Positions 9,318 through 60,013 of a DNA stretch of 64,000 nucleotides are shown in pieces. Each line of letters starts with the position of its first letter. The stretch's first letter is position 1. The position numbers and the translations under genes were made by a program. Source of the DNA: Amphiscolops sp. MND2022 (taxonomy: Eukaryota); NCBI GenBank assembly GCA_964187785.1, contig OZ076410.1:8866001-8930000 (forward strand). The letters run 5' to 3'. The notes beneath the pieces were generated by a model. It had not been told where the DNA came from and made no database searches. It worked only from the letters and a program-made list of their open reading frames with translations.

Positions 9318-10875
9318 GAACTAAACAGACTCACCAGATACTGAACCATGTATGATTCGCCTGGATCCATAAATAGAAAACTAGCATAGCGTAGTCAATT
9401 AACGCATACACTGATAAATTCACAAAATTTCTCAATCAAAGTGCCAATACAATCACAAAACTGAAAACAAGGTCGCAATCATCAATTTTTGGGAGCTTTT
9501 GGTGAATTGTGGGTAATTGTTCTCGAAAGAATCGGAAATCACACTGACAAGTAGGTACTGCTGTAAGAAAAAAGTTTATGATCAACTAAGGAGTAGCTGA
9601 AAACAAATTGTGTGTGGATAAAATTTGTCGTTAACTCCGCGGAGTTGAGACCTGCAATGTATTGTTTGGAGGTACAAAAGGTCGAACGAGGTTCTATTGC
9701 TGGTTCTGCATTCAGCCTATAAAGCTGGCGGCTTTCATTCTGAATTTTTTTCTCTAAATTGTATGTCACGGGCAACAAAATTTATGATTTCAGTTTGATC
9801 ATAGTCCGGGCCATTTGTGATTCCAGACTGGACTATAGACGTTTATGGTTTCAGGAGAACCATAAACTGAATCATATATAGGATTCTAGATTGATCATGG
9901 TTAGATCATAGAAAAAATGTCTATGATTTGTATTGTGCCATATATGATCAGAGTATGATCAACTTTGTGGGAAAACCCGGGCTCGATAAAAGCTCTACTC
10001 ACGAATAAGTCTCAGGAATTTAACAAAATCTTGAAAATGGAACCCGCTAAATCTCAAAGTTCGTTTTTCCATTTTACATTAGATTCTACATTGTATCGCC
10101 CAATGTAACAAAACTACAAGAAGCAAACTGTTTTTTCGTGGGCTGGTAAAATTGTAAACCTCATTTCAAAGTTAATCGATCCGTACAAAGGATACTTTGT
10201 ACATATTTCAGTCACAGTTTCAAAGTTCCAATTTCTCTAAATTGATCTTGGTCAACTTAGACCTATGACAGTTAAGTGAAGTTCACTCTGATAATTGAAC
10301 TTCAAACTTAAGTTCAATCAATATCTCATGTCTTGGGTTGATAACAAGGCTCCATATGCAAAGTCAAACTGCTTGCAAATTTTGGCCCTAACATCACGGG
10401 GTCCCAAGTGTGACGCAATTAATGACCCCCCAAAAATGGTCATGATGAGTTTAGTTCCAGCAAACACTCTTATTAACCTGTTTGTTATCAATCCAAAAGT
10501 GAACAAATTTGAAGTTTTGCCCATGTGATTGCAAAATTGAAGTCGGGTTGCGTTCCAAAGTCATTCTGAAACCATCACATCTGGCTCTAGTTTCAAATCA
10601 GAGCCAGTCAGGAAATTCTTCATTCCTCTAAGTCCCGAGCTTTGAGCATACTTTATAAACACATGCAGCTTTTACTGGATGTTCTAAATAATCAGAATTT
10701 AGCTTCTCAACTTTGTTACTAAATATATTCTCAAAATCGTTATTGATTGCAACTTTGATAAGTATCATTTTTGTATTTCTCACTTCGAACATATAACCCG
10801 AACAGACAGCACCTTGACTCGAACCTATCGTTGACAATCTAAATGTTATTTCCGTAGGTTTATTCTCTAATTTTA

Positions 10876-11521
10876 TTGATGGACCTTGCATATTACGATC
10901 GAGGAGAAAAAATATTGGCATCTACCGGAATCGGCAACCTTATTGGCACATTGGTAAATATCAACGGGAAGTATGTAGCCCGTTTTTTGGGAATCCCTTA
11001 TGCAAAGCAACCTACTGGTGACCGCAGATTCAAGCCCTTGGAACCTCTGGATTGTTTTGTGGCAACAGAATCCAAACCTTATGACGCAACGAAACCTGGA
11101 AATGCAGCTATCCAAAGAACTGACTTGGCCCAATCCACACTGTTTAAAACCAGCGAAGAATGTATTTTCCTGAACATATTCATTCCACTGGACTGTAAAA
11201 ATCCTGGCAGTCAAATAAAATTAGGTCATACTGAAGGAATCGAACCCAAGCCGGTGTTGTTTCACCTCCACGGAGGTGCCTTCATCCTTGGCAGCGGAAG
11301 CGCGGCACAATATGACCTGAGTAATTTTGCAGCTCTGCATAATTCAATAGGCGTTAGTATCAATTATCGCCTGAACGTCTTCGGGTTTCTGAGTTTCCCA
11401 CCTGCTATTGAGGAAAATTTGGGTTTGCGTGATCAACAAATTGCTCTCAAGTGGGTGCATGAGAATATTGGGAGTTTTGGGGGTGACCCCAGCCGAGTTA
11501 CGCTGTACGGCTGTTCGGCAG
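10876..11521 (+). CDS. Type-B carboxylesterase (alpha/beta hydrolase), exon 1
   Basis: FLGIPYAKQP, SEECIFLNIF, oxyanion-hole HGGAF, NYRLNVFGFL, NLGLRDQQIALKWV, FGGDPSRVTLYGCSAG (nucleophile Ser). Donor G|GTCAGT at 11522. An additional 5' exon cannot be excluded. Confidence 0.92.
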
Positions 11522-11972
11522 GTCAGTAGTCTAGAGTCAGATTTTATAGATTTCAGGTCAATTTATTCGTGTCTTTAGAAAACTGAATTTCCTTTCCGTG
11601 AAGTCTGACGTCTTTTAAACATAGATTCGATTCGAGACCTCCGGTTTCCATTTTCAGTCAACGTAGATACTCGGTTGCGCTGCAGGTTAAAATTTAGAAT
11701 GTTCCAATTAAAGTTTTTAGGAAACAAATTAATTGCTTACTGCGCTATGTTGTAACATCAGTGAAAACAATATTAGCATCAGCAATATGCACTAATTGAA
11801 CGTAACTTTGTAACTGATTAACTAAAGAAGCAATGGTTTGAGTTTGTTTGTCAACTTTCTGTTGTAGTTAATAACCTATAATGATGTGACAGATACTTTG
11901 ATGCACTGCTCTTGTTGAGTTATGCGCCCATGTTTTGAAAGTATTGCTTTTTTAACTCAATGGGGTTTTGAT

Positions 11973-12394: not shown

Positions 12395-12791
12395 GTTTTG
12401 ATCATGTTTGTAATGAGTGCTTGAGCTCTTGTCTTCCAGGGTGAATAATTTTCCTGGGTTATCTATCAACGCAAAACGTAATATTCCTGATATTTTTTGA
12501 AAGGATGGTGGTATAGTTCCGCTCTTGATCTAGGAGAACAAAGTTGGAATGAATCCTTGTCATTTACACTCCTCAAATTTATGGCCTTATTTTCGTTGTA
12601 TTTGATGAAATAATAAGGTTTTTTTAGTCGGCCCTTCTTCCCTTGAGGAAAAAAGCCCGACTATTACGGTGGGTAGTTTTTTTTTCAGCTGACAATCTCA
12701 CTCTATGTGGCCCACTTTTCTTACAATTTTCATCTTGCATACAATCTTGCAACGTATTTTACAGCATCTAAGAAACTCAACGAGACCAAAA

Positions 12792-12967
12792 AAACTCGGA
12801 TATAACGTTTTCAAAGTTCGGATATAACGTTTTCAAAGTTCGGATATAACGTATTCAAAGTTCGGATATAACGCTTTCAAAGATCGGATATAACGTTTTC
12901 AAAGTTCGGATATAACGTATTCAAAGTTCGCATGTAACGTTTTCAAAGTTCGGATATAACGTTTTCA
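12792..12967. repeat. 22-bp minisatellite, 8 copies
   Basis: Consensus CAAAGTTCGGATATAACGTTTT, head-to-tail with no spacers. Degenerate monomers also occur near 13520 and 13600. Confidence 0.92.
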
Positions 12968-14016
12968 GTTTTTCTCCAATTTTGTTCGGTCTTTTCCGCT
13001 AAATTTCACATTATTTGTTGAGCTTTAGATATGGCACCGATTTAGGCGGTTCCCGGCTTGTTTTAATCTAAGACCGGACTGTTGAGTGCTCACTTGTTGA
13101 GATCTGTTAGAGTGTGTATATCCAATGCGTCAAAAAGGAAAGGAAGCGACTGCAGTAAAAATTTAACGTCTTCAAAGCCGGAGTTGACTTCCTTAATTTA
13201 AAGGTGTGAGTCTGTAAATTGAGCAGAATTACACTGAAGTTTCAGAACTGATCCTACCCCAATGATCATAATTTCAATTTCTCCAGCAAATCATTTTTGT
13301 TTCCTAATAGAACTTGCGCGCAGTACAAACAGTACCATCGCTTCGTTTTCAATTTTTGGCTCTCGGACTTGAATTGGTCTAATTAAAACAAGTCGGTGCT
13401 TTACTTAAGGCTCAAAAAGCGCAATTTTTCTAAAATATGCTGAGGACTGTTTCTGTGAAAAACTCACAAAAAGGTGTCGAAACATCCAAAGAGCGCTTTT
13501 CGTGCTCGGAAAAGGCTTCAAAACTTCGGATATAGCGTGCTGGACCACATGGCAGCGCTTCTCATGAATCTCGGCTTTCTCATCAGTAAAACGCCACTTA
13601 CTTCGGATATAACGTCAAAAATTCGGATAGTATTGAAAAAGTCTCACAGTGGCAAAAAACATCAAAAGGTAGACCTTTACTCTCGTCCGGTTTTGTATGT
13701 TACATTGAAACGGAAACAAGACGGGACCGGTCCAAGTCGGCGCCATATGTTCGCAACTTTCGAAATATGACTCATAACTTCTAAAGTATGATTCAAAATA
13801 TCAAAACGTATTGTGACTTGTTTTATGTCTTGTATTCCATTGACAAATGCATGATATTATCTTCATTATTCTGCAATCTCAACACATGAATGTCTCAAAT
13901 AAATGAATCTCTTTTTGTAACTATGATTTTTCGCCTGAACAAGCAGGATGGTCCGCTGAAATGAAGAAAACAAGAGTCCGTGATTATTATAACTGAGCAC
14001 CGGCGAGACAATTTTT

Positions 14017-14029
14017 TGGTGCGCCGACC
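14017..14029 (+). promoter_or_regulatory. Primer-binding site of element 1 (tRNA-Gly-like by inference)
   Basis: TGGTGCGCCGACC is complementary to ...GGUCGGCGCACCA, which resembles eukaryotic tRNA-Gly 3' ends. Not checked against the host tRNA set. Confidence 0.55.
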
Positions 14030-14371
14030 TCCCCGGACATCTAAAGACTACAGTCCCAAGATTTTTACCCGTCTTCAAAAACCTCTTAGTTCCAATAAGA
14101 ACCTATTGACATAGTGAATGAGGGGATTCTGAAATTCGAATTTACGATATTTTAGATTTGAACAGAAGTGAGATTTTACAACTTTTTACGATAGTTTATT
14201 CCATAGGTGGATATTTTTGCCGAGTTAATTATAAAACTGAATTGCGGAATTTTTTGTGAAACTGGTTCAAGTAAAGTTGGCATTGCATACTTGATCAAAT
14301 ATTCAATACCCTTGTCCAAATGACCATTTTGAGAGGTTTCTGAATGTCTGCACCAAGACAGTCACGTTATC

Positions 14372-15106
14372 ATGTCTACAGAACTTCATCCACGAAAACC
14401 CTTTTGATTGCCGACTCACAGGCAAGGAATTTGGAAGCAGGCAATTTAAATATACTTTCTCTCTCTGCCTTTTGCTTGTGTCCGGCACGTCTACAATTTT
14501 ATTCCCCCCAAATATATTTTTGACATCATCATTCTTTTTGATGGGGGAAACGATTTATATTTTTTCAAAAACCCAACTACGACACCTGCCCTTCAAGTGT
14601 CGCACGAGATTACAGATCTTGCAAATCTCTTGTGCGATCGTGCCAAAGTAGTTTACGTTCTTGGCATCCCTGAATGAAACGAAAATAAAGTACGTTCGAA
14701 GCAAGTAAACGATTTCTTGCAATCAGTAGGAGAGCGCAAGACCAAAGACCAGCACCTCGTTACGTGGAGGTATCGAACTGTAGCCCGATATATCACTGGG
14801 GCCCGTTGTTTTCATCCCCACCACGCCACACACCTCAACGAAAACGGTCTCAATAACCTTAGAAATCTTTTTGAAGAAAAAATCCTATACAAAACCTACA
14901 AAAAGGAGCTGAACAAGCGTGGTAATGACAAATTCGTTGATTGTAAAAGAGATGAGTGCCAGTGTCCATGCAGTGACTGGTGCAAATATACCCCACAGCC
15001 TTTAAATGTTAGAATTTTCAACTTTTGCTTTCACTTAAAGGTTACCTTGAGGTTCCGCTTAGTGAATTTAAAGTTGAAATTTTGCTTTTTTTGTGTGTCT
15101 GAGTAG
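14372..15106 (+). pseudogene. SGNH/GDSL-hydrolase-like accessory ORF of element 1 (frameshifted, one TGA)
   Basis: Block I TLLIADSQARNL (Ser codon 14416). After a frameshift near 14470, block III DIIILFDGGNDL, then VVYVLGIPE*; TGA at 14675 is probably from CGA. Block V HHATHLNENGL lies in the 14717 ORF. Confidence 0.75.
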
Positions 15107-15321
15107 CTAAAGGTTACCTTGAGGTTCCACCAGCTATCTCAGATCACTTTCACAGTAGCTCTGCGCATCAAGACTACTACAAGAAAAGGCATCTCATGTA
15201 CTGCTTGTGAAATCTGCTTACTTCAACAGCCTTTTTACTGTTGCTTCTTGATTCCCGGAAGGCTGATAGCGACCTTGAAAAGTCACTGTCATAGTCCCCC
15301 TTTACACGTTGATCTACCTCG

Positions 15322-16713
15322 ATGATGACGGATCCCATTCATTCATCCAATCCTTTACGAGCTGATGAAAAACGACTTTCAAGGGTTATGGGTGCGCTCA
15401 AGGGTGCCTTCACAAAGCTCGAAAAGAAAGTGGATGACTTCTTAACTACGGTGATTGCAACGCCAAATCAACTGGTTGAAGCCGAAGCACTTCTAAAGAC
15501 GCTTCAAGACAAGATTCAAGTCATCCATTGGTATGACGCTGAGATAGAACTACTTCTTGATGATGATGATCAACTGTCTCAAGACACGGAGCTTTCGACA
15601 CAGTTCCATCACAACGCAAGTGTGGCTGTTGCACGTTTGTCGGCCCTGACTGACACATATAAGAGACAATCAGAAGCCACGGTGAACTCTCCACGTACAT
15701 CTACAAACGATGGGAGCCAGAATTCAAGCAAACTGAAACTCCCGAAACTTCAACTTCCATCATTTACGGGTTCTTATATGGACTGGATGAGCTTTGCCGA
15801 CCTTTTCAAAGCATCAGTCGACTCCAACAACCAACTATCAAACTCTGAGAAGTTGAACTATTTAATGGTTTGTGTCAAAGGAGAAGCAGCCAAGCTGATT
15901 AGCTCAGTTACGATCACTGATTTTAACTACGAAATCGCTTGGGAACTCCTGCACGAACGCTATGAAAACAAAAGGAGCATTGTTCAAGCCCATTTACAAG
16001 CAATTTGGGTTCAATGTTCTCTGAAGTCTGAATCCTCAACCGGTCTGAGAAAACTACTTGAAACAGCAAACGAGAATCGCAGAGCCTTGACGGAACTGGG
16101 ACAACCAGTGGAGCATTGGGACGCAATTGTCGTTCATTCTCTGTCTGAGAAGATGGATCCCGAGTCACGCAAGCAGTGGCAGCTGGACCATCCCGGAACA
16201 GACCTCCTCACATGGAAACAGCTTTGAAAGTTCCTCGATACTCGAAGCCGTGCACTCGAGATTGGTGGTTCCAAGCCATCAGGTCAAGTAAACACAACTC
16301 AAAACCCCCAACGGCCTGATAAGCGAATCCAATCATATTCGGTATCCAGTCCATCGTGCGAAAATTGTAGTGAGGATCACAAGTTGAATTCTTGTCCTCA
16401 GTTCAAAGCCATGTCAGTTGCCAATCGACATCAATTCGTCAAACGAAAAAGACTCTGTTTCAACTGTCTCCATCCTGATCACTCTTCCAAAGATTGCCAG
16501 TCAAAGTTCTCTTGCCGCGAATGTAAGATGAAGCACCACACACTGCTCCATCGAACTCGAAAACCTTCCAATCCACCACAAGTCGGTGACAACGGGAGAA
16601 ACACTTTTCAAGCAAGCGGTAGTTCGGCGTCTCAGAAAGACTCCAACTCTAAGTTCACAACAGGGCATTTGAACACTGATAGTCAGACGATACAGTACTT
16701 CTCTCCACTGTAG
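15322..16713 (+). pseudogene. gag: Element 1 gag (DUF1759-like region and zinc knuckles)
   Basis: KLPKLQLPSFTGSYMDWMSF motif; in-frame TGA at 16225. Cys/His knuckles CENCSEDHKLNSC, CFNCLHPDHSSKDC and CRECKMKHHTLLH. Confidence 0.88.
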
Positions 16714-16751
16714 TTGTCTCTATACGAAATGGGAGTGGTGAGCCAATCAGA

Positions 16752-19700
16752 ATGCGAGCACTCTTGGATTCCGGGTCCCAAGCCAGTTTTATCACTGCAA
16801 ACATGGCGAAGGCCCTAATGCTTTCGACAAGAAGTAATCAAGCCACGATTACGACATTTGGTTCAGCACAGACCCAAAAGACTTGTGGAACTTTGTCGAC
16901 CACAATCAATGAAACAGTAGATGTCAGTTTGCATCTGATTTCAAAAATTACCAATGTGATACCCTCTCGGGAGATCGATATTTCACAAATTAGACACATC
17001 AACCGAGCTTCAACATTCCGAGCAAAGTAGATGTACTTCTAGGAGCCGATGTTGTTGAAGAAATCCTCCTCGAGAACAAAATCAAAGACAATGGACTTTA
17101 TCTAAGAGACTCCATTCTTGGCTGGGTGGTATCCGGTCCAGTCGCGACCTCGGATGCACACTGCATCACAACACATCTGGCAATTTCTTCTGAAGCAGAC
17201 ACAGACCAGTTGCTGTCCAAATTTTGGGAATTGGAAAGCTTCCCCGAGCAAAAACACTCGACTGTTGATGAGCGAAAGTGTGGAGAGCATTACAAGGTCA
17301 CTACTCAACGAAATACTGAGGGAAGTTCAGTGGTCCAAATGCCATTCAAGGAGGAATCACAAAAACTTGGCTACAGTAAAGCAAATGCAATGAAGCGATT
17401 TCTTCGCTTGGAGCAGACTCTGCATCGAGATGAGTCTCTCCTCAAGAAATACTCAGCTTTCATTCAAGATTTTCTTGACCTTGGTCATCTCGAAAAAGTA
17501 GACAGCCTGGAACTGGATGTTTTCCCAAACTACTACCTCCCACATCATTGTGTGCTGAAGGAAGATAGCTCGACGACAAAATTACGTGTTGTTTTTGACG
17601 CAAGCTCGAAAACAACCACAGGCGTCTCTCTGAACGAATGTCTACTTGTCGGTCCCAAGGTTCAAGAAGACCTCATCGACATTTTGCTCAGGTTTCGCTT
17701 CTTCAAAGTTGCCATGTCAGCCGACATTGCAAGAATGTATCGGCAAGTGGAACTCTCCAAAAAAGACAAGGACTATCATCGTATATTTTGGCGATTCGAT
17801 AGGCAGCAACCAATCGACACCTACAGGATGACACGCGTAACCTACGGTGTCGCAAGCAGTTCCTTCCACGCCATTCGCTCACTCGTCGAGTGCGCAAATC
17901 TTGAAGGAGTTTCTTTTGAAGCTCAAATCTCGATAAAAAGAGACTTCTATGTTGATGGCATACTCACTGGAGCTAATTCTGTAGACGAAGCCAAGAAATT
18001 ACAATGATTTGATTGAGGCACTGAAGCAGGCTAAATTTGACCTTCGAAAGTGGACATGTAGTGAAGCCTCACTCGTTCTTTCTCTACCCCCCGAGTATAG
18101 AGAAGCCAACGACAACTTAGAATTTCTCGAAAATGACCACACCATAAAAACACTGGGGATCGTTTGAAACCCTACTCAAGATGTCTTCCTCTTCGAAGTT
18201 GCTCATGTTGAAGAAGACACATTTGACAAGAATAATGTCACAAAGCGACAAATGCTGAGTGACTCTTCTAAAATTTTCGATCCGCTCGGTTGGCTTTCTC
18301 CTGTAACAATTCAGCTCAAGCAGATGATGCGGAAGACTTGGGAAGCCAGCGCAAATTTGGATGACAAGCTCCCCGACCATTTAGTCAACATATACCTCGG
18401 ATGGCGATCAAAGTTAACTTCTCTGAAGGAAATGAAATTGAAACGATTGGTCCTCTTGGATGGATTTGCAGACAAGGTGGGTGTTCACCTGTTCTGTGAT
18501 GCCTCCGAAAAGGCATACGCTGCCTGCATTTACATTGTCGCTTCAACTAACTAGGGCAAAATAGAATCTTCTCTTCTGGTGGCCAAAACAAAAGTAGCCC
18601 CAATCAAATCTCAATCAATCCCACGTCCAGAGCTCTGCGCGGCCCTTCTCGGTGCGCGCCTCCTAAAGTCAACATCGAAAGCTACCAATCAATTGAACCT
18701 TCAAATCGGAACTCAATACGCCTGGACTGACTCAACAATCGTCTTGAGTTGGCTTTCTCGTGAACCAAGCCATTGGTCTACATTCGTGAGCAACCGGGTC
18801 TCAGAAAATCAGGGCCAAAAATCAATTGGATGGAATCACGTAAGATCTGAAGACAATCCAGCCGACCCTGCATCACGAGGCATTGATCCAGATGCAATCC
18901 AGGCACACTCAGTGTGGGGGAATGGGCCTGACTGGCTTATCACCGGAAATTTCCCTGAACCCTTTTTTCCAGACGAAGTTCTCGAAGAACAGAAAAAGGC
19001 AAAGATAATATCTTTTCACTCTTCCGCTGCTCTCGATCAAGATGCTCTCGATTTGTCAAAATTTAATCCCCTTTACAAAGCTTTACGAGTTCTTGCGTAC
19101 GTTAAACGTTTTGTATCGAAACTGAAAAAAGAGTTGAAAGACGTCCCTCGATACGTGACAGCCTCTGGACTTGCCGACTCGACGATGACATTACTGCGGC
19201 AGGAACAACGCAAGGCATACAGTGAAAAAATCAAGACCCTGGAAATAGCCCCGCAAGTGAAAAAAGAAAGTAAAATCTTGAAACTTTATCCTTTCCTCGA
19301 CGATGGCGTGCTTTGTGTAGTAGGCGGAAGACTAGCCCACGCTAACTTTCCTGACGAAAGCAAGTATCAGCGTTTGATTCCGCAAAATAGTCATTTAGCC
19401 AGACTGGTTGTGTCAAACGCTCATCTGTTGACACTTCATGGAGGACTAACCCAAGTGATGGCGCACATCCGCACTCGTTTTTGGATCCCAAGCTGCCGTT
19501 CACTTGTAAGAAAGTTAGTTCTAAATTGCGTCGGCTGCAATCGATTCATTGTCAAGCCCCAATACCCCTTAATGGGAGATCTACCCAAAGAACGTGTCGA
19601 TGTCCGAACAAAAGCTTTCGAAAGTGTAGGAAGTGACTTTGCAGGCCCGTTTCTATGTCTCTCGAAAATCGGCACGGAATGTTGTCAAGTCATATATGCC

Positions 19701-20568
19701 ACTCTTTGTCTGTTTTGCAAGTAAAGCTGTGCATATCGAGGCAGTGTCCGACATGACTACACCGGCATGCTCCGCAGCCTTGAGAAGATTCGTTGCCAGA
19801 AGAGGGTGCCCGAAGACCACTTACAGCGACAATGGAAGCAACTTTATTGGAACCCGAGCAGAGATCTCACAATTGCAAAAAATCTTGAAGGCCGAACATG
19901 AAGATTCCTTACAAACCGTTGCAGCTGGCCTCCTAATCAATTGGGCCTTCATACCTCCAAGAGCTCCGCATTTTGGAGGTCTGTGGGAGTCCGCAATCAA
20001 GCGAGCGAAGCAACATCTACGAAAGGTGATGGGCAACAAGGTACTTTCGTTTGAAGAACTAACCACACTCTTTTGCCAAATTGAGTTGATTTTGAACTCA
20101 CAACCGATTTGCCCGCTCTCTGAAGATCCCAACGATGACACAATTTTGACTCCTGCCCACTTGTGTCTTGGTGGTAAGCTTGAATCACTGCCGCTCAAGG
20201 AAAGTGTTGTTATTCCCAGATCCGAAACAATCGATGACGGGAGTGACGCAACGTCAGTCAAAAAGTGGACTCCTTTGCAAAATCTAACCATCCACTTCTG
20301 GAAAAGGTGGACAAAAGTGTATGTGACGTCCCTCCAGGAACGCAATAAATGGAAACAAGAGACTTCCAATCTAAAAGTGGGTGATGTCGTCTACGTGTCT
20401 GACGATAACACACCTCTTCAGTGGCCCCTAGCAAGAGTATCTTATGTCTACAGTGGCCCTGACAAGTATGTTCGAGTGGTAAAAATCAAGACGGCCAACG
20501 GAACATACAACAGATCAGTCCACAAACTGCGAAAACTCTTTGGCAACCGGCAAAACGATAATCACTAA
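16752..20568 (+). pseudogene. pol: Element 1 pol (protease, RT, RNase H, integrase), fragmented
   Basis: ALLDSGSQ (protease); YYLPHHCV...KLRVVFDAS and RDFYVDGIL (RT, YVDD mutated to YVDG); HLFCDASEKAY (RNase H); SDNGSNF and HFGGLWESAIK (integrase). Several stops and frameshifts. Confidence 0.92.
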
Positions 20569-20989
20569 AAAACTTTAATCAACAACAAACTTGTAGTTTT
20601 GATTTTCCTTTGTTTCAAATGTTTCGCTTAATTTCCTATAGGAAATCAAGGCGGGCGGTATGTTCGCAACTTTCAAAATAAGACTCATAACTTTTAAAGT
20701 ATGATTCAAAATATCAGAACGTATTGTGACTTGTTTTATGTCTTAAATTCCATTGACAAATGCGTGATATTATCTTCATTATTCTGCAATTTCAACACAT
20801 GAATGACTCAAATGAATGAATCTCTTTTTGTAACTATGATTTTTCGCCTGAACAAGCAGGATGGTCCGCTGAAATGAAGAAACTAAGAGTCCGTGATTAT
20901 TATAACTGAGCATCGGCGAGACCACCATATCTAAGGCTCAAAAGTAGCAAAAGGACTTCAAAATGTCAAAGTATTGGTGAATTGGGAAC

Positions 20990-47870: not shown

Positions 47871-49876
47871 AAATAGTAAATTAATATAATCAGAAAAGAT
47901 ATTTCCAAAACAGGTTCAGAACAGATATAATTTTGATGAGGTTTGTAACAATTGAGTCAATTTTGGGGAGTAAGAGCTATATATACTGCCGTCAGCATGA
48001 CACTCACTTTTTTGACATGATTCGATAAATTAGTCAACATTCCCTGTTTCACATGTACAGAAGGTTACACATACATCAAAGCAAATTCTTTACAAGCGCC
48101 TGATTGGGACACGAGTCCCATGTCATCCTGACAAACGCATGAGAGTTCTTTTGAAATGTGACATTCTAAATATTTCCTTAGTCGGCACAAAGCAATAATA
48201 AATGTCCACAACGCATCAATCAAAGGATCAGATTGCACTCAGAGTGATAGGACTGCAAACATTCATTTGCAAGCACGTGCCTACGCATGCAGGCTGAATA
48301 TTGGTTCGAAATGTTTCGCTCAGCACCATAAAATTTATTTTACATGCTAGGAAACCTTTACTTCTTGTTGGCCAGAAAGGGCCGTCGGACTTAAATCCAG
48401 GCCTGACATTTCTGTCAGAGAGGTTCTGATAGTAGGTACATTGTATATTTAGCATCAATAGGCAACAGATCATTATTATTCTTGCCAAATACCAATATGC
48501 ATGAAAGAAAACATTAAGTACTTTCTGATTAAAAGCACTATTTTGTTGGTCAAGTAAGACATTCCTCATAAATAAAACAAGTATTGGCCGGCATAGGCCG
48601 ATTGACTGGTATCACTAGAGTAGCAGCTGTGTTTGGTCAATTGGCCGTAACCAGCATAATGAAAGATACTGCATAGCAACAAAGTATATGTATACTGCAT
48701 CCTGATTGGCTACTTTCTGAACTGTAAGCAACGCTGCCGAGAACACGTTTGCGCTCTTGAAAACGTTTCTTTTCTGTTGATTAATTGAATACAATTTATC
48801 AGAGCTCTTTTCGATACAACTTACACACATTGCAACTTCAATATATTTGACTTCTTGACTTGATAACCACAAATCGTAAAATATTAACAGACTAATCTAA
48901 ATACTTGAATGCAACAAGAATATATAAAGGTAGCAACATCTAAAATGCAAAGTGTCCCCATTAAAGTAAAAAGTTCTAGTTTGTTCGATTGCTGGGTAAG
49001 GTTTACCTTAATAGATTGGCAATGTTCCGGGTTCGATTTGCTGTCCAATTGTTGTCGTTGTAATTCTCCTTCTGTCACAGGCGGCAGCCTGCGACAACCC
49101 TTAAAAATAAAAACTTCTCCCAGGAATGTTTTTTTCTTGAACATATGAAAAATCGATGTTTCAATTGATTTTTTATTGTTGTTGCTCTATGTCTCAAAAT
49201 TGTCGAAAAAAAACGCAATATTTTCAGAGGTGTAGAGAAAGTGTTCAACTGAGTTTTTTCTGAAGGTCAGTTTATGTTTGCAAATTTCAAGCTCATCAAA
49301 GTGTGGTCAAATTAACTTTTATTTGTTTTTGTTGGGACTATTTTTGATACAGAAGGCGTGTTTCCAATTACTTTTTATCATTGATCTTTTGGTGTGAGAG
49401 CCTCTGGTTGCTCCCATGAGGTGTCATTTTCTCAAGGCTTCTTTGTCTCAAGATAACAAACAGACCGCAACAACGTCGGTATGCCCCTTGTTTTTGGTCT
49501 ACGCATTTTGGAAAAAAGTGCCCTACTGTAACAGTGATCACTATTTGGTTTCGTTGGATAATAATGTATCTGTATGGTCCACTCCAAAGACTTTTCGCTA
49601 AAGATCTAACAGATTATATCCTTGTGAAATTCTGTAGAAAAGTTTTTAGTCGGCGTTTTATGAAATGAAACGCGACTATTCTTGTGACTTTTCGTCGTGT
49701 TTTTTTGTTTTTTTTTTCAATCCCGTCGAAGTGACCATTTCGTGCCAAATGCCTAAATCCGAAAATTCTACAACAAAAATTCTGTAAATTGGCAAATTAG
49801 TCGGAAGGGTCTCGTCAATCGTATTTTGACATTGTTGTGTACACAATATGATTGGATTAAAACAAACTAATCTTTG

Positions 49877-49950
49877 GGCGCTATGGCGAAATAGGTTAGT
49901 GCGTTCGGTTCCTATTCCAAAGGTCCGGAGTTCGATTCCCGGAATCTGCG
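49877..49950 (+). promoter_or_regulatory. tRNA-like Pol III module inside the 5' LTR (also 58830-58903 in the 3' LTR)
   Basis: GGCGCTATGGCGAAATAGGTTAGTGCGTTCGGTTCCTATTCCAAAGGTCCGGAGTTCGATTCCCGG has an A-box-like and a B-box-like motif at tRNA spacing. Stems are imperfect. A T5 run follows about 45 nt downstream. Confidence 0.7.
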
Positions 49951-51162
49951 GAACCTTTGGTAAAAAATACTAAAATACCGTTTTCGACTAAAATACTTTT
50001 TGAAATAATATATACGAAACTTTGACCTTGCTATCTCGAAACTTTAATTAATGTTTGATAATATTTGTAAACAACCTTTGTGCCTTTGTCAGTTTCGTTA
50101 ATTTATACAGCTTTATCATTGTTCTATTGTGTTGCGTTCGAAAAAACAGAAACGTTCGAAATATACCATTCATTTCTTAAAGTCTTTTGCAAAACGATCT
50201 GTAGAATTGCTCCGAGACTACAGCTATTTTATGGTGGCCATAGAGAGGCATATACATTACACAGATTTTTATCGAGGCTACGGTTGAAGTGGACAAATCA
50301 GAGACTGGACAAGCTTTAACTCCTGAACTCGTGACGTCTGACCCCAAGACATGTGCGACCCTTGATGTGACCCAAGCGAAGAATCAACTGCCCGAACAAC
50401 GTCTTCCACCCCTCCTATCGCCCGCCCCAGACGTCCGCTGGGTGAAATCATCCACAGAACGGGTTCAAATTAGTGGGCATGTTCCACCTAAGGGAGACGA
50501 ATCCTCCCCGCCGAAGTAAACGAGATTAAACCAGATATTATACGCCCAAAAGCAGACCGAATCGAATGAACAACTATCATTACTGATTCAGCCGAAGGTT
50601 CGACGAAATCTTAGCAACTTTCTCGACACCACTAGAACTTCCCCCCACTGATGAGCTACCCCCATACAACCCACAGAAGATCCCCTGGTTGTTAGTAACC
50701 AAAAAACTTGAAACACATCGCGATTCTTCAGGATTTAAAATTCCTGAAAAGTTCTTGATCAAAATTTTAAACCCAGAGGCTTTATTATTTTAATTATTGT
50801 GCTAATCTTCGAGATAGCAAAGTTTGTCAAATTCGGGACACTTTTGTGTTATGTAAAACTTCCAGTTTCTTATGAAATTTGGAAAGGGTGATTGATGAAA
50901 AAACACATAGTAACACTTTCCTAAAAGGCACAAAAAAATTGACACCCTTCTTTCAAACAGAACCCAAAAAAGGGTTCAATTCGTAATTATCAACTGAAAC
51001 TCGGCATAAAATTTAGAAAACTGAGCGCTAATTGCATTTTGCTTCTTGTAAAAAAACTTTGTCCCGAATTTTCCAGGTAATCTTGTTCCAATTTGAAAAA
51101 TTGTTGGATCCGCCTTTTGATAATCCGTGTAGCCAAAAGAAAAAATCACAAAAAAATCAGTT

Positions 51163-51939
51163 TTGCGCGAAGTGTTGCAAAAAAAACGCATGGTTTTCAT
51201 ATTGGCTGCTAGTTCTTTGCACCATGCAATAGAAACGTTAACTCCCGATGAAAAAGAACGTTATGAAAGCAAAATTGTCTCTATCCCGGGCCTAAGTCTC
51301 AATCCGAACACGAAAAATCCCAAGAAGATTGTTCAAAATTTACTTTCGAAAGATCTGAAAGATAAAAAAGACATTGTGATTTGGCATGATGTTTTGAACA
51401 ATAGTATTTCGAAACATGATAGCAACAATTTACGTGCGTTATCAGTGTTGGATCTAATTAAAACATTGAAAAATCTTCAAGACAAGCTTTGTGCTCTGGT
51501 GTATTGCCAACGTTACCGCACCCCGTACATTTTCGAAGAATTGAAAGTTTTGCAATATGATCATGACATCAAAGTGTTCAGTATCGTCAAAGATTTTATA
51601 TCCGTGAAAAAACGAAAGGATCCCGAGATTCTTAAACAATTCAAGGCGTTGCATCAGAGCCCAGAGCTTGAGCTGAAAAATTTGGATTTCGTTCTTCGTA
51701 AAGAGAATCAACTCTCTGCAATAACCGATAAAAACCGACCCAAACGGCCAAGTAAGCGTGCCCGGAACGCTGCAAAGAGAGCCGCTGCCTTCTTTTACTC
51801 TCAGTTGACAACACCCCCCCCCCGCTGCTTCCAGCTGTCGAGACAGTGTCCGAACTTCACTGATCGGTTGAAGTTTCTTCAGCTCTTCCTCCTTCTTTCA
51901 GAGTTGTGTCCAGTCTTGACTGACTGGTTGATACTCTGA
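51163..51939 (+). CDS. Accessory ORF of element 2, derived SGNH-hydrolase-like fold with basic C-terminal segment
   Basis: Open frame, likely ATG at 51190: VFILAASSL (block I), KIVSIPG (II), DIVIWHDVLNN (III), ALVYCQR, FKALHQSPE (V), then RPKRPSKRARNAAKR. The SGNH assignment is by motif order only. Confidence 0.6.
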   Translation: MREVLQKKRMVFILAASSLHHAIETLTPDEKERYESKIVSIPGLSLNPNTKNPKKIVQNLLSKDLKDKKDIVIWHDVLNNSISKHDSNNLRALSVLDLIKTLKNLQDKLCALVYCQRYRTPYIFEELKVLQYDHDIKVFSIVKDFISVKKRKDPEILKQFKALHQSPELELKNLDFVLRKENQLSAITDKNRPKRPSKRARNAAKRAAAFFYSQLTTPPPRCFQLSRQCPNFTDRLKFLQLFLLLSELCPVLTDWLIL

Positions 51940-52214
51940 AAGATCGTTTCGTCCCTCACCAGCACCACCGTCAACTGAGACCGCGTTGAGTCGACGCGAC
52001 TTTGAGTTTATCGTGTTCCGTCCTCGTAGTCTGTGACTACTTTTAACTTAAAACAAAAAAAATTGCCAGTTTCTTTGTAGAAGCACTGTACAAACACAGT
52101 GTTGTCACCGATAAACACCGTTCTTTCTTCTACCGAACTTTTTCTTGAACTGTGTCCAAACTTAATTGTTTGGTTGACGTCTGAAAAAGTACAAACGCCC
52201 ACCGATCCTCAAAT

Positions 52215-54560
52215 TTGGCTACGGTCATGTCTGACCCCGTTCACGAAAAGGTGCAAAAGTTATATGACAGTCGCGCGAAAGCCGAAGCCGACCTGAACAG
52301 ATATCAAAAAGACGTGACAGAAGCAGTAAACAATGCCGATAGACGAGTACGCGTCGAACGGTTGGTCACTTCTTGCGAAGAGGCTATGACAAAAGCTTTC
52401 GCTAAGAACGAACAGCTACTCGAGCTTGCCAAAAAAACCAACGACCCGGCAACTGTCACTGCAGACCTAGAAAAATGGTTGAACGTCACGAGCATACAAA
52501 ATGACGGAATTTTGAGAAGCGCAAGGGAATATATCGATCAATGTCCCAAAACAGATAATTCTTCGCAAACTTCAGTCAAAGCTGCCACCGTAAAGACTAA
52601 GTCTAGCAAAGTTTCAAGCAGCAAAGCGTCGAAAACTTCAAGTCAGCGCCAACGAGACTTGCTTATTGCCAAACACAAGCGAGAAGAAGTAGAAAGACAA
52701 AACGAAGCTACGTAGCTAAGCAAAATCAAGAGCTCGAGCTCGAACAACTGCAAGAAGAGAACCGCAAACGACTTGCAGAGGCGCATCTAGCTGAACTTGA
52801 ACTTCAAGAAGACCCCTCTGAAGCTAACGAGGATGCTCACGAAACTCTTTCGCGTTTGAGCAGAACAACGAACGCTAGCGAAACACGCCGAGTTAGCGAC
52901 TGGGTTAACAACTCACCAATCGTTGCCACGACTCAACACGAGACGGCAAAAGCGGTGTCTGCAAGTCTAGCGACTTCGGTAACAAACACCACTGTTTCGA
53001 TTCCATCTCAGCAACCTCCGGTTAATGTCTCCCAGCCGACTTTCGCACCAGGTGATCCCAACGAAACAAACGTGGCAGTACAACTACCAACAACTACCGT
53101 TCCATCAATGAGTTTAAATCACACTCCTGCGATACAAACTCAGACTCCTCCATTGACAGCGCAAAACTTGGGGAATATCGGACCTTCAACATCAGCTGTC
53201 ATAGTACAACATCAAGTTCAACCGACAACCATCCCGGCCCAAACTGGAAGCTTTAATGCACAAGTATTAACGCCACAAACGACATCACGTATGCCCACAT
53301 TCACAATGCCGGTGAACCACATCCCCCCCCAACTTGTCCGCTTGGACCTTCCCGAACCCGACCGTTACCACCGCACCGATTGTAACAACAATTCCATCCC
53401 CGACACAGCCGACGGCACCTACATTCATACCGGTTCCTCACCTGCCAACCTGTGCCGCTCCGACAGTACCCGTTACCGCTGGTGGAACTGTATATTATGT
53501 ACCACCAGCAACCGTTACAACGCCAATTGTGTACAGTACAGTAGCACAACCGACAACTTCTCTCAGTCCTACAGCCGCTACATTTGTACCAGCCGGAACG
53601 TCAACGACTATGCAACCAAGTGCAACCGGATTCACGATACAAGATCTTGCATTGTTGTTAGCTTCAACGAAGAAAGACCATCTGCCAGAGTGGAAACTAG
53701 CACAATATAATGGTGACCCGATACAATGGCATGAATGGTTTGGCCAGTTCAAAAGTGCCATAGACTCAGCACCACTCACCGATGACGTCAAGTTAACATA
53801 CCTCAAGACTCTTGTTACAGGTAAAGCAAAAACTGCTATCGCTGAGTTTGCTTACTGCGGAGCAATGTATAGAGACGCCCTAAAGACACTAGAACGGAAG
53901 TTTGGACAGCCACAGGCTGTAGTAACTGCCTATCTGGATAAGTTGGCAAACTTTCCACCCGTGAAGATGCACAACAGTGAGAGCATCATCAGTTACTCAG
54001 CAGTAATTTGTTCTCTAGTCGAGGTCTTCCGATCTCTAAACTACGTCCAAGACCTGTCAAGCGCATCATTGCTTGGACAAGCCGTTCAAAAGCTTCCGCC
54101 AAACATGAAAGAAGCATGGTCACTGCACACAGTGAGGCGAACTTTGGACAGATCGACGCTCATTGATTTCAATGACTGGCTCAAAGACAAAGCCGGAGCG
54201 CATGAGCGCATGAAGTCTCTGCCGAACAAAGCGAAACCTGAAGAAAGTAACAACGTGACTGTAACTAAGACCAAGACTGCTTCCAAGGTTTTCGCAGCGA
54301 CGACTTCTAGTCAACAAAGTGCCAGCGCCAAAGTTAAGAATGGCAAACCGCCCAACACTTGTGCCGCTTGTAAAAAAAACATCCTTCGTGGAGATGTCCA
54401 GCATTCAGAGGAAAAACACCCACAGAAAGAGCAAGAATTGTAGCTGACAATAAGCTTTGCTTTTCATGCTTCAACCAGAACCACACGTTTCGCCAGTGCC
54501 CGCAACCCCGCAAGTGTACAAAAGATGGATGCGGGAGTTCACACAACACTTTCGTGCACG
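52215..54560 (+). pseudogene. gag: Element 2 gag (coiled-coil N-terminus, long P/T-rich linker, DUF1759-like core, zinc knuckles)
   Basis: HLPEWKLAQYNGDPIQWHEWFGQF and KLTYLKTLVTGKAK; knuckles CAACK... and CFSCFNQNH...C. Disrupted near 52713, 53330 (C8 run) and 54370 (A8 run). Confidence 0.88.
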
Positions 54561-57500
54561 GAGCTGACAGGATTTTTGCTAAGAAAGTCACTAGCGTGAA
54601 CAAGGACAAAACTGAAACATCTGGTTGTATTGGAACATCAATGAACAACGAAAAAGCAGACGAGAGCTCAGGCATGCCTTCCGTTGCCGATGTCAAAGGC
54701 CTGTTACAAGTAACGGAAGTTGAACTTCACGGGAACGGCAAAAGCGAAAAAGTCCTAGCACTGTGTGATTCTGCCTGCAGCCATTCCTGGATCTCAACAA
54801 ATCTGGCAACGAAGTTGAACGTTCACGGTACCGCAACCAAGCTTACTGTCCATGGCATAAATTCCAACCAAGTCGTAGACACCCAACTGGTGGAGCTTAA
54901 GTTGACACCCGTTCATTCGGGTGGCTCTTGCTCTTCCTTTGTTGTTAAACCGTACGTCAGGGAAGACCTCAAAATCGGAACTGACACCATCGATGTCGAA
55001 CTTTTGAAAACAAAGTACCCCCATTTGCAACCAATCTCTTTGAAAAAGTACAGCTACGCCGATGTTGAAATGATCCTAGGTCAGGACGTTTTCCACTCGA
55101 TCCGCCCGCTGGAGTATTTTGATTCCGACCGCAAAAATGCTCCAGTTGCCGTTCGTTTACCGTTGGGCTGGGTTTTGAGTGGACCGCTCCCCTCGTCCTC
55201 AGGTCTCTATTCAACTTGTTTTAAAGCTGTTGCTTCTAACAAGGAATTGGACTCCGAACTTGCCGACCAACTCCGAAGCTGGTACTATATCGAATCGTAT
55301 GGAGCGTACAAACAAGTAGATTCACGTTCCGCAGCCGATGCGAGAGCGTTGGAAATACTTGAAGAAACGACTTACCACGATGGTAACCGATACCATGTGG
55401 GAATGTTGTGGACCGAACAAGACAGTAGTTTGCCGAATAACTACTTTTCCGCGCTCGTGTAGCTGAAGTCGTTAGAACGTCGCCTCGACAAAGATCCTGA
55501 ATTGAAACAACTTTATGCCAAAACAATTCACGACGACTTCGACAAAGGTTACATCATCAAAATTGACAAAAGCGACTGTTTCAAATTAGACCAACCCCGC
55601 GAGTGGTACCTGCCACACCATCCTGTAGTGCACCCGCACAAACCTGGCAAAGTTCGCAGAGTATTGAATGGCGCAGCAAGGTTCCAGGGCCAATCTTTGA
55701 ACAACGCCTTGTTAACCGGACCGGACTTGCTACAAAGTTTGATACACATACTGATCCGCTTTCGTCAACACAAGTACGCCGTCTCTGCCGATATCGAAGG
55801 TATGTTTCTTCAAGTTGGAGTCATACCAAAAGATCAACCTTCACTTCGTTTTCTGTGGCGGGGAGACCCAGCTGCAGAAATCGCTGTGTATCAGTACGTC
55901 CGGCACATCTTCGGGTCGAAGGACTCACCAACATATGCGAACTACGCACTGAAACGTACTGGTAGCGATAACCAAGACGCTTTCCCTGAAGCAGCGAAAA
56001 GCGTTCATCGCAATTTTTACATGGACGACTACTTGGAATCAAGCCCTACGGTCGAAGAAGCCAGTAACAAAGCAAAGGACTTGGTGGCACTGCTTGCAAA
56101 AGGTGGCTTTAATCTAACTAAGTTTGTTTCCAACATTAACCACCTTTCAGCCGAACTGCAACAAAGCGGCGAACTAGCACCGACCGATGAGAAGGTGATT
56201 CCGAAACCAGACGAGTCCTCACATGTCTTGGGACTTAAATGGAATCATGCCTGTGACACTCTCGTTGTAAGTCGGGGAACGAGCCCTGCTACGAACAAGA
56301 AACTTACTCAACGAGTGGTACTGAGCGTAGTTTCAGCTGTCTACGATCCCATTGGACTCGTTGCTCCGTTTACCGTCCAAGCAAGACTGTTGTTGAAAGA
56401 CATCTGGAGATTAAGTGGTCAACAGTGGGATGACGATCTGCCAGACGAAGTCGTAACTAAGTTCAACGAATGGAGCAAGGAACTGCCAACTTTGAGCGAA
56501 ATTCAAATCCCACGGAGCTATTTCGAAGCGCGAGTTGAAACCTTGGAGCTTCATATGTTCGGTGACAGCTCTCAAGATGTCTTCAGCGCCGTCGCCTTTC
56601 TACGAGGAAAAGTTGCCACCACGACTGGTTATACAACAGAGTTAGCTTTCGTCTTTGGGAAAGCCAGAGTAGCACCCATGAAAGCCCTTACGATCCCGAA
56701 GCTTGAACTACAAGCCTCGTTGCTTGCTGCACGACTCCGAAAAGAAATTGAAAATGCGCTAACGGTCAGAGTTGCTAACACTTTCATGTGGACGGACAGC
56801 ACGACGGTCCTTCAGTGGCTCCATTCATTAGAGAAGCAACCGGTGTTTGTAACCAACCGCGTTGCCGAAATCTTGGAACTAACAACAGTGGATGAATGGA
56901 ACTATGTTAAATCAAGTGACAACCCCGCTGATGCAGGAACGCGTGGTCTTTCAGCCAACTCACTTCGTGACAGTCCTTGGCTCAAAAGTCCTTCATTCTT
57001 GCGAACACACGACTGGCCGTTCAAACCACCAAAAGAAGTTGAGGTCAAATTGAAAGCGAAAAAGTCGGACACTCCCATTTCGGAACAAGAAACTTCAGAA
57101 TTTTTGACAGCTTTAAGTGCAACCGTGATCGGCATCGCGACAACTTTCGAGTGGCAGAAGTACAGCTCGTACGAGAAACTTCTGCGCGTTGTTGCTTACA
57201 TTTTGCGCCTACTGCCAAAAAACGAAGGTTACCGATCCGACTCTGGTTTAGTAACTGACCCAAATGAAATGCGAAATGCTGAATTGAGACTTTTCTATCT
57301 CATCCAACAAGAGTCATTTCCCGTCGAACTGAAGTGCTTGCTGAAAAAATCCCCCGTCAGCAACTCTTCTAAACTTTCCCAATTCTCCCCTTTCATTGGG
57401 CCTCAAGGCCTACTGCGAGCAACCGGTCGGACCAAACAACTAACAGTTTCCAACTTCGACGCAAAACACCCTATTTTACTGGACAGCCGTCACCCCGCCG

Positions 57501-58627
57501 TACGCTTGTACTTAGAGCAGCTCCATGAAACGCATTGCCATCAGGGTGTCGACTACATGAGGGCGTTGCTGCAGCAACAGTTCGCCATCGTCAAGCTTAG
57601 AACCGCCCTGAGGTCAATTGTCTCCAAATGTGTCACTTGCCGCAAACGTCGAGCGGAAACTCTTGACCCGATAATGTCCGACCTTCCTCGGGAAAGACTG
57701 GCATTTCAAGAGCGTCCATTTACGAACACCGGAATTGACTATTTTGGCCCGTTTTACGTAGCTGTGAAAAGATCAACCGAAAAACGATGGGGATTCCTAT
57801 TCACTTGCTTAACAACCAGAGCTGTCCATTTTGAAGTTGTCCCGTCAATGGACACTAGTAGCTGTGTTATGGGAATAGAAAGATTTGCTGCCCGCCGGGG
57901 CGTCCCATCTGTTTTGTGGTCTGACAACGGAACCAATATCATCGCCAGTGAAAAGGAGTTGCTACAAAACGTGTCAGCGTGGAATCAACAGATTCTGTCT
58001 GAAGCTTTGGTCAAAAAACGGATCCACTGGAAGTTCAATCCTCCCAGTGCTCCCCACCACGGAGGTGTCTGGGAACGAATTGTCAGGAGCTTCAAACACG
58101 TTTTTTACGCAATTCTTGGAAACAGTCGCCTAACTGATGAGATACTAACAACTACCTTCTGTCTGGTAGAGCAGAGTCTCAATTCCCGTCCACTGGTACC
58201 CGTTAGCTCCGACGCTACGGATTTGGATGCCTTGACACCAAACCACTTCCTCTTGGGAACCGCGGGTTCCACAATGCCATCGCACCAAAGAGCCGACGTA
58301 GACCACAGAAAACGCTACGCACGCGCGCAAGCGTACTCAGATGCAATTTGGGACCGTTGGCTCAAAGACTACGTTCCGTCGCTTAACCGCCGTTCGTTGT
58401 GGTCAACCCAACCAGATCGAGATCTCAAGACCGGTGACCTTGTCTGGATTGTGGAGCCTACGAGTCCACGAGGACATTACCCACTTGCACGTGTGGTCAA
58501 GCTGAACTACGGTACCGACGCTGTCGCTCGTTCTGCGGAACTGAAAACCGCAACAGGAAACCTTGTTCGACCCGTTGTCAAACTTGCACCCGTTCTCCCG
58601 TCCCCCGATTCCCCCAATCTTACTTAA
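54554..58627 (+). pseudogene. pol: Element 2 pol (protease, RT, RNase H, integrase) with one in-frame stop
   Basis: ALCDSACS (protease); WYLPHHPV and NFYMDDYL (RT); HMFGDSSQD (RNase H); HETHCH...CVTC, GIDYFGP, WSDNGTN and HHGGVWERIV (integrase). TAG at 55460-55462. Confidence 0.95.
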
Positions 58628-60013
58628 TCTTTAACCTTCTTCGTTTTTGTTTTCTCTTGTAATCATGCCAAAAATGAATAAAATGTAACATGTACATCAA
58701 AAACCCATGTAATCCGTTTTCAAAAAAAGTTTCCGTTTCAATTCAAATGTTTTTTTTGCATTCACATCTTCTTGGGCCCGGAGGATGTTGTGTACACAAT
58801 ATGATTGGATTAGAACAAACTAATCTCAAGGCGCTATGGCGAAATAGGTTAGTGCGTTCGGTTCCTATTCCAAAGGTCCGGAGTTCGATTCCCGGAATCT
58901 GCGGAACCTTTGGTAAAAAATACTAAAATACCGTTTTCGACTAAAATACTTTTTGAAATAATATATACGAAACTTTGACCTTGCTATCTCGAAACTTTAA
59001 TTAATGTTTGATAATATTTGTAAACAACCTTTGTGCCTTTGTCAGTTTCGTTAATTTATACAGCTTTATCATTGTTCTATTGTGTTGCGTTCGAAAAAAC
59101 AGAAACGTTCGAAATATACCATTCATTTCTTAAAGTCTTTTGCAAAACGATCTGTAGAATTGCTCCGAGACTACAGCTATTTTAGACATACTTATTCGAA
59201 TTAGAATAATATTGAGTTATTTTCGGAACTGTGCTACTTTTATTCATAAAAATTTCAATTTTCCAAGAAGGTCGTCCTTGTTTTTTTTCAAAAAAAAATG
59301 GGTAGAAAAAAACTTTCTTAATCCAAAAGGGTATATCGTGAGTTTTTCGGCATTGTGCTATCTTTTCGGGAAGTTTTTCATTCCACGAAGGGGTTATCGT
59401 TTTGGTTTCTTGATGTTCCTGGTGATAAAAAGGTAAAGAAGCATTTTAAAAAGCCAGGTTCGCTCTTTCTCTCGGTGAATCTCTTTTTGCTTTAAAAAAG
59501 GAGTCTCATTGTGCCCGGAGAGCGTCGCTCGGAAATTAGATTAAAAACGACAGTGCCATTGCGTCTCTTTTCTGAGTCAATTTTCAAAACTTACTCAAAA
59601 CTTACTCAAAACAGACTCCAATAGTTATCGCATGAAAACGTTTTTCCTTTGTAATTCTTCAATATATATCAATGATAATTGTTATCGGAAGAAAATTGTT
59701 TGGATAGGGGTTGTCTGAAATTCAAATAGGATTTGATTGTTCACCGCGGTTTATTTATGTACCAATGTAAACATAGGTTTGTTTCAAATACACTGCTACA
59801 AACTGAAATTATTTTAATGTGCCTAAGACGAAACAGTGGTTTCTGGGACTATTGGCAGTTTATCGGGAATTCGGATTGAACGGCGGTTTTCAGTGGAAAA
59901 AATTGAACACTTCAAAAAATTCTACCACTTTGGAAACCAGCGGTGGAAAAGGCGATTGATTTTGTTTCTTATTCAGCGCAATATTCATGATTCATCAGCA
60001 GAAGATATCATTT

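Follow-up and report, generated by a model that had tools for sequence, protein, structure and literature searches.

A predicted SGNH-type esterase ORF ahead of gag in a BEL/Pao retrotransposon family, and its relatives in other transposons of Amphiscolops sp.

Known transposon esterases and the BEL/Pao element in the window

Esterases have been reported in several kinds of transposon, including CR1/L2, RTEX, Penelope, Ngaro and Helitron elements and, as ORF3, the LTR elements of rotifers (PMC3905857, PMC5408684, PMC9210276, PMC4021074, PMC5718144). The esterase of ZfL2-1 has enzymatic activity, attaches to anionic liposomes and promotes retrotransposition without being required for it (PMC3905857), and the rotifer ORF3 esterase is described as a case of gene sharing between element classes (PMC5408684). 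Why unrelated transposons repeatedly acquire SGNH esterases has been an open question since the CR1 and ZfL2-1 work. An initial annotation of the locus studied here had named the CR1/L2/RTEX non-LTR elements as precedents, which is correct, but it missed the LTR precedent in the rotifers (PMC5408684), the occurrence of the gene in several transposon classes of this genome and the exchangeable nature of its slot. The standard Belpaoviridae profile consists of gag, pol and an optional env only, with LTRs of 0.2-1.2 kb (PMC8742986). In the main text of PMC3118150, esterase, hydrolase and lipase are mentioned 0 times, and a search of titles and abstract starts found no report that places an esterase in BEL/Pao or Copia elements, ahead of gag or inside an LTR (Repbase and subscription papers, outside this search, may contain such entries).

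Here, we investigated a 64,000-nucleotide stretch of Amphiscolops sp. MND2022 DNA, referred to as the window. All features of its first BEL/Pao element (element 1) lie on the + strand. The 5' LTR (13748..14010) has TG...CA ends and is 95.0% alike to the 3' LTR (20661..20924) over 262 nt, and the 5-bp target-site duplication CCATA at 13743..13747 is repeated at 20925-20929. A PBS-like sequence, TGGTGCGCCGACC, is found at 14017..14029 and is exact in many family copies. It is followed by a leader (14030..14343) with two upstream ATGs (14118 and 14320), which is collinear in family copies. The gag-pol region (15313..20568) is in pieces, comprising gag, zinc knuckles, protease, an RT region, Peptidase_A17, integrase and DUF5641, with Pfam matches to DUF1759, Peptidase_A17, Integrase_H2C2 and DUF5641. 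The element is recognizable as BEL/Pao by its LTRs, PBS, DUF1759 gag, Peptidase_A17, integrase after the RT, and DUF5641. It shares with standard Belpaoviridae the LTRs, PBS, gag, PR-RT-RH-IN and 5-bp duplication (PMC8742986). Unlike that standard, the elements described here have a pre-gag gene or gene-bearing LTRs of 1.3-1.9 kb, which adds to the gag-pol-env plan known for BEL/Pao genomes.

Two further features lie upstream of element 1. A host carboxylesterase exon at 10858-11529 (COesterase, E 5.8e-53) is 2.2 kb away; it was rejected as the source of the element-1 esterase, as it has another fold, and its position beside the element is likely a coincidence. A tandem array of 22-nt units occupies 12747-12988, and lone units recur as far as 13640.

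The ORF of interest, which we call type 1, occupies 14344..14980 (+) and is supported by family copies, Pfam, a structural model, selection and fold searches. It has 211 codons in open copies and is broken in the window copy. Its location between the PBS and gag of an LTR-bounded BEL/Pao element agrees with the initial annotation, given the LTRs, the PBS-like site, the Pfam domains and the CCATA duplication. The decayed frame described there, with a frameshift and a TGA, is also present: a 4-nt insertion in a TC run near 14460..14470, private to the window copy, shifts the frame, and an in-frame TGA follows at 14675..14677. The first frame holds TLLIADSQARNL, and the next holds DIIILFDGGNDL, VVYVLGIP and HHATHLNENG, so that the four proposed SGNH motifs occur in the proposed order but are split over two frames. 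The window copy has a changed catalytic-acid position, and its frame continues to 15106 because the stop of the open copies at 14981-14983 is absent. The span first assigned, 14372..15106, therefore had to be shifted at both ends, to 14344-14980; the ATG at 14372 belongs to another frame.

A DNA search of the genome for family copies, in which 40 of the 52 candidates were scored, found 42 matches, and the top 30 loci, including the window's own, were fetched. LTR sequence, leader, ORF, spacer and gag follow each other in this order in 30/30 copies. The ORF is uninterrupted in five of the 30; four of these five lie between LTRs 97.7-99.6% alike, and the second LTR of the fifth is outside the fetched stretch. 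The window frame is one damaged version of a 211-codon ORF that the whole family carries. A LINE fragment inserted into one copy alone, the alternative raised at the outset, was rejected, as the segment is collinear in all fetched copies and its 3' spacer, where we looked for a target duplication or poly(A) of its own, has neither.

The predicted protein

A natural open copy of the type-1 protein (P0001) matches Lipase_GDSL_2 with an E value of 3.8e-4 and 21.4 bits, below the curated cut-off of 32.9. Among 38 aligned relatives, 32 match the same family at E<=0.1, and one relative is above the Lipase_GDSL cut-off (27.1 vs 23.6). Pfam gave no match for the window's own ORF fragments. A sequence search of the PDB with the single protein gave 0 matches, and a profile search gave weak GDSL matches (E 0.66-1.5). 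The Atlas places type 1 with GDSL clusters at 0.93, which we treat as a lead only.

Next, an AlphaFold model of P0001 was built on the alignment of relatives and reached a pLDDT of 90.8. The model has the flavodoxin-like alpha/beta/alpha SGNH fold. Foldseek gives PAF-acetylhydrolase as the best match (E 1.1e-6) and also finds the ZfL2-1 esterase (4c1b; E 3.1e-4, TM 0.31, 20% identity). The top VIA match is a sialic-acid O-acetylesterase with a Z score of 16.0 and an rmsd of 3.0 over 162 aligned residues. All of the top 50 VIA rows are SGNH-type proteins or their relatives, including the OSK domain of Oskar at Z 12.8. The SGNH likeness seen by eye is not chance, as the fold search is decisive. 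A lack of any SGNH profile or structure match would have told against the initial annotation, and the fold match removes that objection. The top VIA match names no substrate because the Z values of many SGNH enzymes lie within 1-2 units of each other.

The catalytic positions are well conserved in alignment A1, with S25, G42 and N68 each in 36/38 sequences, D159 in 32/38 and H162 in 33/38. Block I reads ADS, not GDS; the Gly of block II, the Asn of block III and the DxxH of block V are present. Across ten types of carrier element (see below), Ser25, Gly42, Asn68 and Asp159 occur in 10/10 and His162 in 9/10. His10 and three C-terminal Cys columns are also present in 10/10, and the model includes strands at residues 10-14 and 195-200. 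His10 and the three cysteines likely form a zinc site. All ten carrier-type proteins are basic (pI 8.7-10.0), and none has a signal peptide-like, transmembrane or strongly hydrophobic segment (no segment above 1.73). We predict that the ORF encodes a soluble SGNH serine esterase that is small and basic.

Like the ORF1p esterases of ZfL2-1, CR1/L2, RTEX and Penelope (PMC3905857), the type-1 protein has an SGNH fold, an intact triad, a 5' accessory position and a basic charge. Unlike ZfL2-1 ORF1p, it is a stand-alone ORF of ~200 aa ahead of a normal gag or a PHD-type ORF1. It has no evident N-terminal coiled coil fused to the esterase, as the model is esterase from residue ~10 and ends in a short Cys tail; the His/Cys tail with its predicted zinc binding is a further difference.

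Selection, spread and exchange of the esterase gene

We compared variants private to one copy with variants found in at least three copies. Private variants comprise 297 non-synonymous or stop and 82 synonymous changes (pN/pS 1.03-1.41, depending on the mutation model), and the shared variants comprise 21 and 36, respectively (pN/pS 0.17-0.23; Fisher p 7e-10). A gag control over 241 codons gives 0.94-1.32 for private and 0.13-0.19 for shared variants. Therefore, the ORF was conserved while the family multiplied and decays after insertion. Ratios for close pairs of type-1 sequences are mixed (0.27-1.85), as few changes were counted. The initial annotation had proposed an accessory gene of an LTR retrotransposon and had called for its openness and selection to be checked. 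With the ORF open in 5/30 copies and a shared-variant pN/pS of about 0.2, the proposal is well founded: the ORF is an element-encoded accessory gene under purifying selection as strong as that on gag.

These data bear on the reading that the ORF is a passive passenger, either a piece of a LINE ORF, taken up a single time and carried along without selection, or an insert able to move by itself. The closest in-genome relative of the window-family esterase, among the candidates scored, is indeed LINE-borne, with 72 nt of DNA similarity at 82% in the 5' part of the window ORF, and 25/30 family copies are broken. Neutral carriage is nevertheless largely refuted and barely credible, given the gag-like selection on shared variants, the saturated synonymous sites relative to the LINE copy (pN 0.35), the precise ORF-sized module in every copy, and breaks that are private and so reflect decay after insertion.

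Searching the genome at the protein level, with 150 of 951 candidates scored, yielded 151 matches; 29 loci outside the window family, hand-picked for diversity, were fetched. The type-1 protein family is 35-48% identical across carriers. The 29 loci comprise 14 in BEL LTRs, eight in LINEs, four in Gypsy elements, one in Copia, one 3' of a BEL pol, and one in a transposase-like element. Searches with two intermediate relatives added no new carrier in this genome. Many database relatives may come from this same species, as P0015 is identical to an in-genome ORF.

The 14 in-LTR loci belong to two other BEL lineages, and the esterase is found in both LTRs or in solo or partial LTRs. These LTRs are 1270 and about 1670 nt long and up to 99.6% alike, and one pair flanks an open 2226-codon gag-pol. 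Protein-coding genes are here seen to be spread by solo LTRs. In one in-LTR family (L091:4600-4660), the LTR has no clear CA end and no AATAAA, and about 50 nt separate the end of the ORF from the PBS. Polinton-like genes with a Pox_A32 ATPase lie beside a solo esterase-bearing LTR at L114:4445-9068, which is adjacency and not carriage.

Four loci precede a Gypsy-type gag (with RVT_1, RNase H and rve), with 148-nt LTRs in the one checked. The Copia locus precedes a gag-pol with rve and then RVT_2 and has 136-nt LTRs; the stretch from ORF to gag is common to four further copies over 1.2 kb. LINE carriers have the esterase as an ORF of its own, in front of a PHD ORF1. Three copies of one LINE family are alike from the same point, ~90 nt before the frame, through the esterase, the PHD ORF1 and the endonuclease-RT. 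The transposase-like carrier (L105:5767-9063) has a 1099-aa ORF behind the esterase with DUF1258, a weak Transposase_21 match and an N-terminal SET domain (E 1.3e-5). It has a second, interrupted locus, making two loci in all; this is probably carriage by a DNA transposon and is the least secure of the carriers. Within a single genome, one esterase family occupies four positions (pre-gag, both LTRs, post-pol and pre-ORF1) and is carried by at least four superfamilies of retroelements.

In the BEL element with the esterase directly 3' of pol, within identical 258-nt LTRs, the gene sits where env would be. This suggests a reading in which the esterase acts at the level of the cell, altering host glycan or lipid esters (e.g., O-acetyl groups) in favor of element-carrying cells or of cell-to-cell spread, as a stand-in for env. 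The sialic-acid O-acetylesterase as top VIA match agrees with it, and an env-substitute role is discussed for rotifer ORF3 (PMC5408684). We consider this quite improbable, as the proteins have no signal peptide-like or transmembrane segment and the tied Z values point to no particular substrate.

The bdelloid Vesta elements offer a close comparison, with a GDSL ORF3 common to Athena and Terminons, that is, an extra LTR-element ORF found across unrelated retroelement classes of one host. The Vesta ORF3 is downstream of pol, belongs to rotifer-specific lineages and is reported to show no significant departure from neutrality (PMC5408684). Type 1, in contrast, occurs in BEL/Pao, Gypsy, Copia and LINE elements, mostly 5' of gag or in the LTR, under clear purifying selection. 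The Ngaro SGNH ORF (PMC9210276) and the Helitron-linked texim (PMC4021074) are likewise transposon-carried SGNH hydrolases, but their elements are tyrosine-recombinase or rolling-circle types and not LTR/integrase types, and texim has introns. Transposon esterases and their sharing between element classes were known before; BEL/Pao and Copia carriage and the pre-gag and in-LTR positions do not appear in the papers searched.

We then examined trees of natural open esterase ORFs, which are unrooted and mostly unresolved. The window-family esterase groups with a LINE-borne copy (support 99/95 in the within-family tree and 100/99 in the joint tree). A single clade of the six BEL-borne rows, a group chosen after viewing the first tree, is rejected (p-AU 0.0007). 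No direction of transfer can be read because the esterase tree is unrooted. Integrase and RT trees place the window family within a sister group of BEL elements (100/100 and 100). In these trees, the BEL elements with an in-LTR esterase cluster with element 2 of the window, which bears a different accessory ORF (type 2, below).

For the sister group, we drew a sample of 20 elements from 150 gag relatives, which are 57-76% identical. The type-1 esterase is present in 0/20. Instead, the pre-gag slot holds a type-2 ORF in 13, and five have an antisense JmjC-like ORF in LTRs of 1.3-1.9 kb; the remaining two have neither type-2 nor JmjC-like ORF in the fetched stretch. Taken with the pol trees, this accessory-gene content means that accessory gene and pol do not travel together. 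In the simplest reading, the window family replaced a type-2 ORF by a type-1 ORF. The type-1 esterase is dispensable, as many BEL families of the sister group lack it and are abundant all the same. It is a likely helper gene that unrelated transposons exchange, and we are confident that an accessory gene kept by selection was swapped into the pre-gag slot from a pool common to LINEs and other transposons. Its replacement by other genes in sister lineages offers natural with/without comparisons, along with small soluble proteins for assay.

Other accessory ORFs and possible functions

Element 2 is a distant BEL/Pao element at 49833..59085 (+) with 300-nt LTRs 99% alike. Its type-2 ORF occupies the pre-gag slot at 51190..51795 (+), and the frame continues to 51939 in the window copy. 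The type-2 ORF is followed by gag in 30/30 fetched copies, with a shared-variant pN/pS of 0.19-0.28, and it is also found in many other BEL families and one LINE (2733 candidates in the genome). The protein has conserved S, N and H at plausible places and a basic tail. Its model reached a pLDDT of only 63.6; the top four VIA rows are SGNH proteins at Z 7.9-9.1, and a dehydrogenase also scores 7.9. Foldseek gave no match at E<=0.001, Pfam none and the Atlas no usable match, and a profile comparison of type 1 with type 2 was not significant. Because the model is poor and the SGNH match no more than suggestive, we do not file type 2 as SGNH; it is possibly a divergent member. Copies of element 2 that are 94-98% alike in LTR, ORF and gag have different leaders upstream of the type-2 ORF (50250-51180); breakpoints recur near 50250 and 51180, the picture of a recombining leader.

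The antisense JmjC-like ORFs lie in the LTRs of two sister BEL lineages (L180:1084-1905, L192:1066-1887, L181:7805-8683, L182:1283-2161 and L191:7915-8721). Pfam JmjC matches three of these five (best E 2.6e-5), one above the cut-off (25.1 vs 24) and two below; the other two have no match. An HxD...H motif is seen in these ORFs. The genome holds 137 matches, many of them open and paired about 7 kb apart, and the pair L180-L192 has a dN/dS of 0.10. A literature search of titles and abstract starts found no report of JmjC in LTRs.

A short inverted-repeat motif is found at 15039..15056 and again at 15111..15128 (both +), downstream of the type-1 ORF. It is reminiscent of a histone-type stem-loop. 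By a strict pattern, defined after inspecting the sequences, it occurs behind the type-1 ORF in 4/9 carrier types, plus two variants, and in 0/14 type-2 loci. Gypsy, Copia, LINE and BEL-3' carriers have similar motifs behind the ORF, in-LTR copies have none, and loci with the motif include L104, L101, L113, L099 and L095. Rfam has no family for the motif in four loci.

These neighbors raise the possibility of counter-defence, in which the esterase, or its fold as an RNA-binding module (cf. Oskar), would blunt host silencing or protect element RNA and so aid any class of transposon, with the hairpin-like motif as a cis-acting site. The JmjC-like ORFs in the slot or LTR of 5/20 sister elements, the SET domain of the transposase-like carrier, the range of carriers over both RNA and DNA transposons, the match to the OSK domain and the distribution of the motif are all consistent with such a role. 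The intact catalytic set points instead to an enzyme and not to a dead RNA-binding fold, the motif pattern is post hoc and missing behind in-LTR copies, and the ZfL2-1 esterase neither deacetylated histone peptides nor bound oligo-A (PMC3905857). We therefore regard counter-defence as unlikely.

Our best overall explanation, held with moderate confidence, is a selected, swapped-in SGNH esterase gene that helps its element. By analogy, its job may be the removal of acyl groups at membranes, a mechanism suggested by the intact catalytic set and the ZfL2-1 precedent. Translation of the esterase would be separate, from the first ORF on the element RNA, and the positive charge of the protein (pI 8.7-10) may attract it to anionic membranes or ribonucleoprotein particles. 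At these sites it would hydrolyse an acyl ester, most likely of a lipid, and thereby aid the element in cis during particle assembly, traffic or cell exit, as proposed for ZfL2-1. The N-terminal His and three C-terminal Cys would bind zinc as a structural clamp. The gene was most likely exchanged where element RNAs or DNA copies came together, through template switching or recombination.

Several findings count against a lipid or membrane role. Unlike ZfL2-1 ORF1p, the protein has no evident coiled coil or other anchor to membranes, and its structure matches ZfL2-1 (TM 0.31) less well than it does cellular SGNH enzymes. The best fold matches are acetylesterases, not long-chain lipases, and the transposase-like carrier and the sharing of the slot with JmjC-like ORFs fit poorly. 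We give a lipid or membrane job for the type-1 esterase slightly less than an even chance.

A broader and more tentative idea, which we find on balance somewhat unlikely, is that the transposons of this genome share an exchangeable pool of enzyme genes (the esterase, the second esterase-like protein and JmjC dioxygenases). These would move among pre-gag/ORF1 or LTR slots of BEL, Gypsy, Copia, LINE and DNA transposons with their own cis-element in tow, serving as class-independent counter-defence or fitness factors, like the accessory genes of phages and plasmids.

Two other features were seen in the window. An 853-codon frame at 60014-62575 (-) contains a 27-nt tandem array at 61138-61542 and has no Pfam match. 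A dispersed 90-150-nt repeat, SINE- or MITE-like and present in both orientations, occurs at 29739-29885, 41983-42074, 43467-43617 and 44875-45043.
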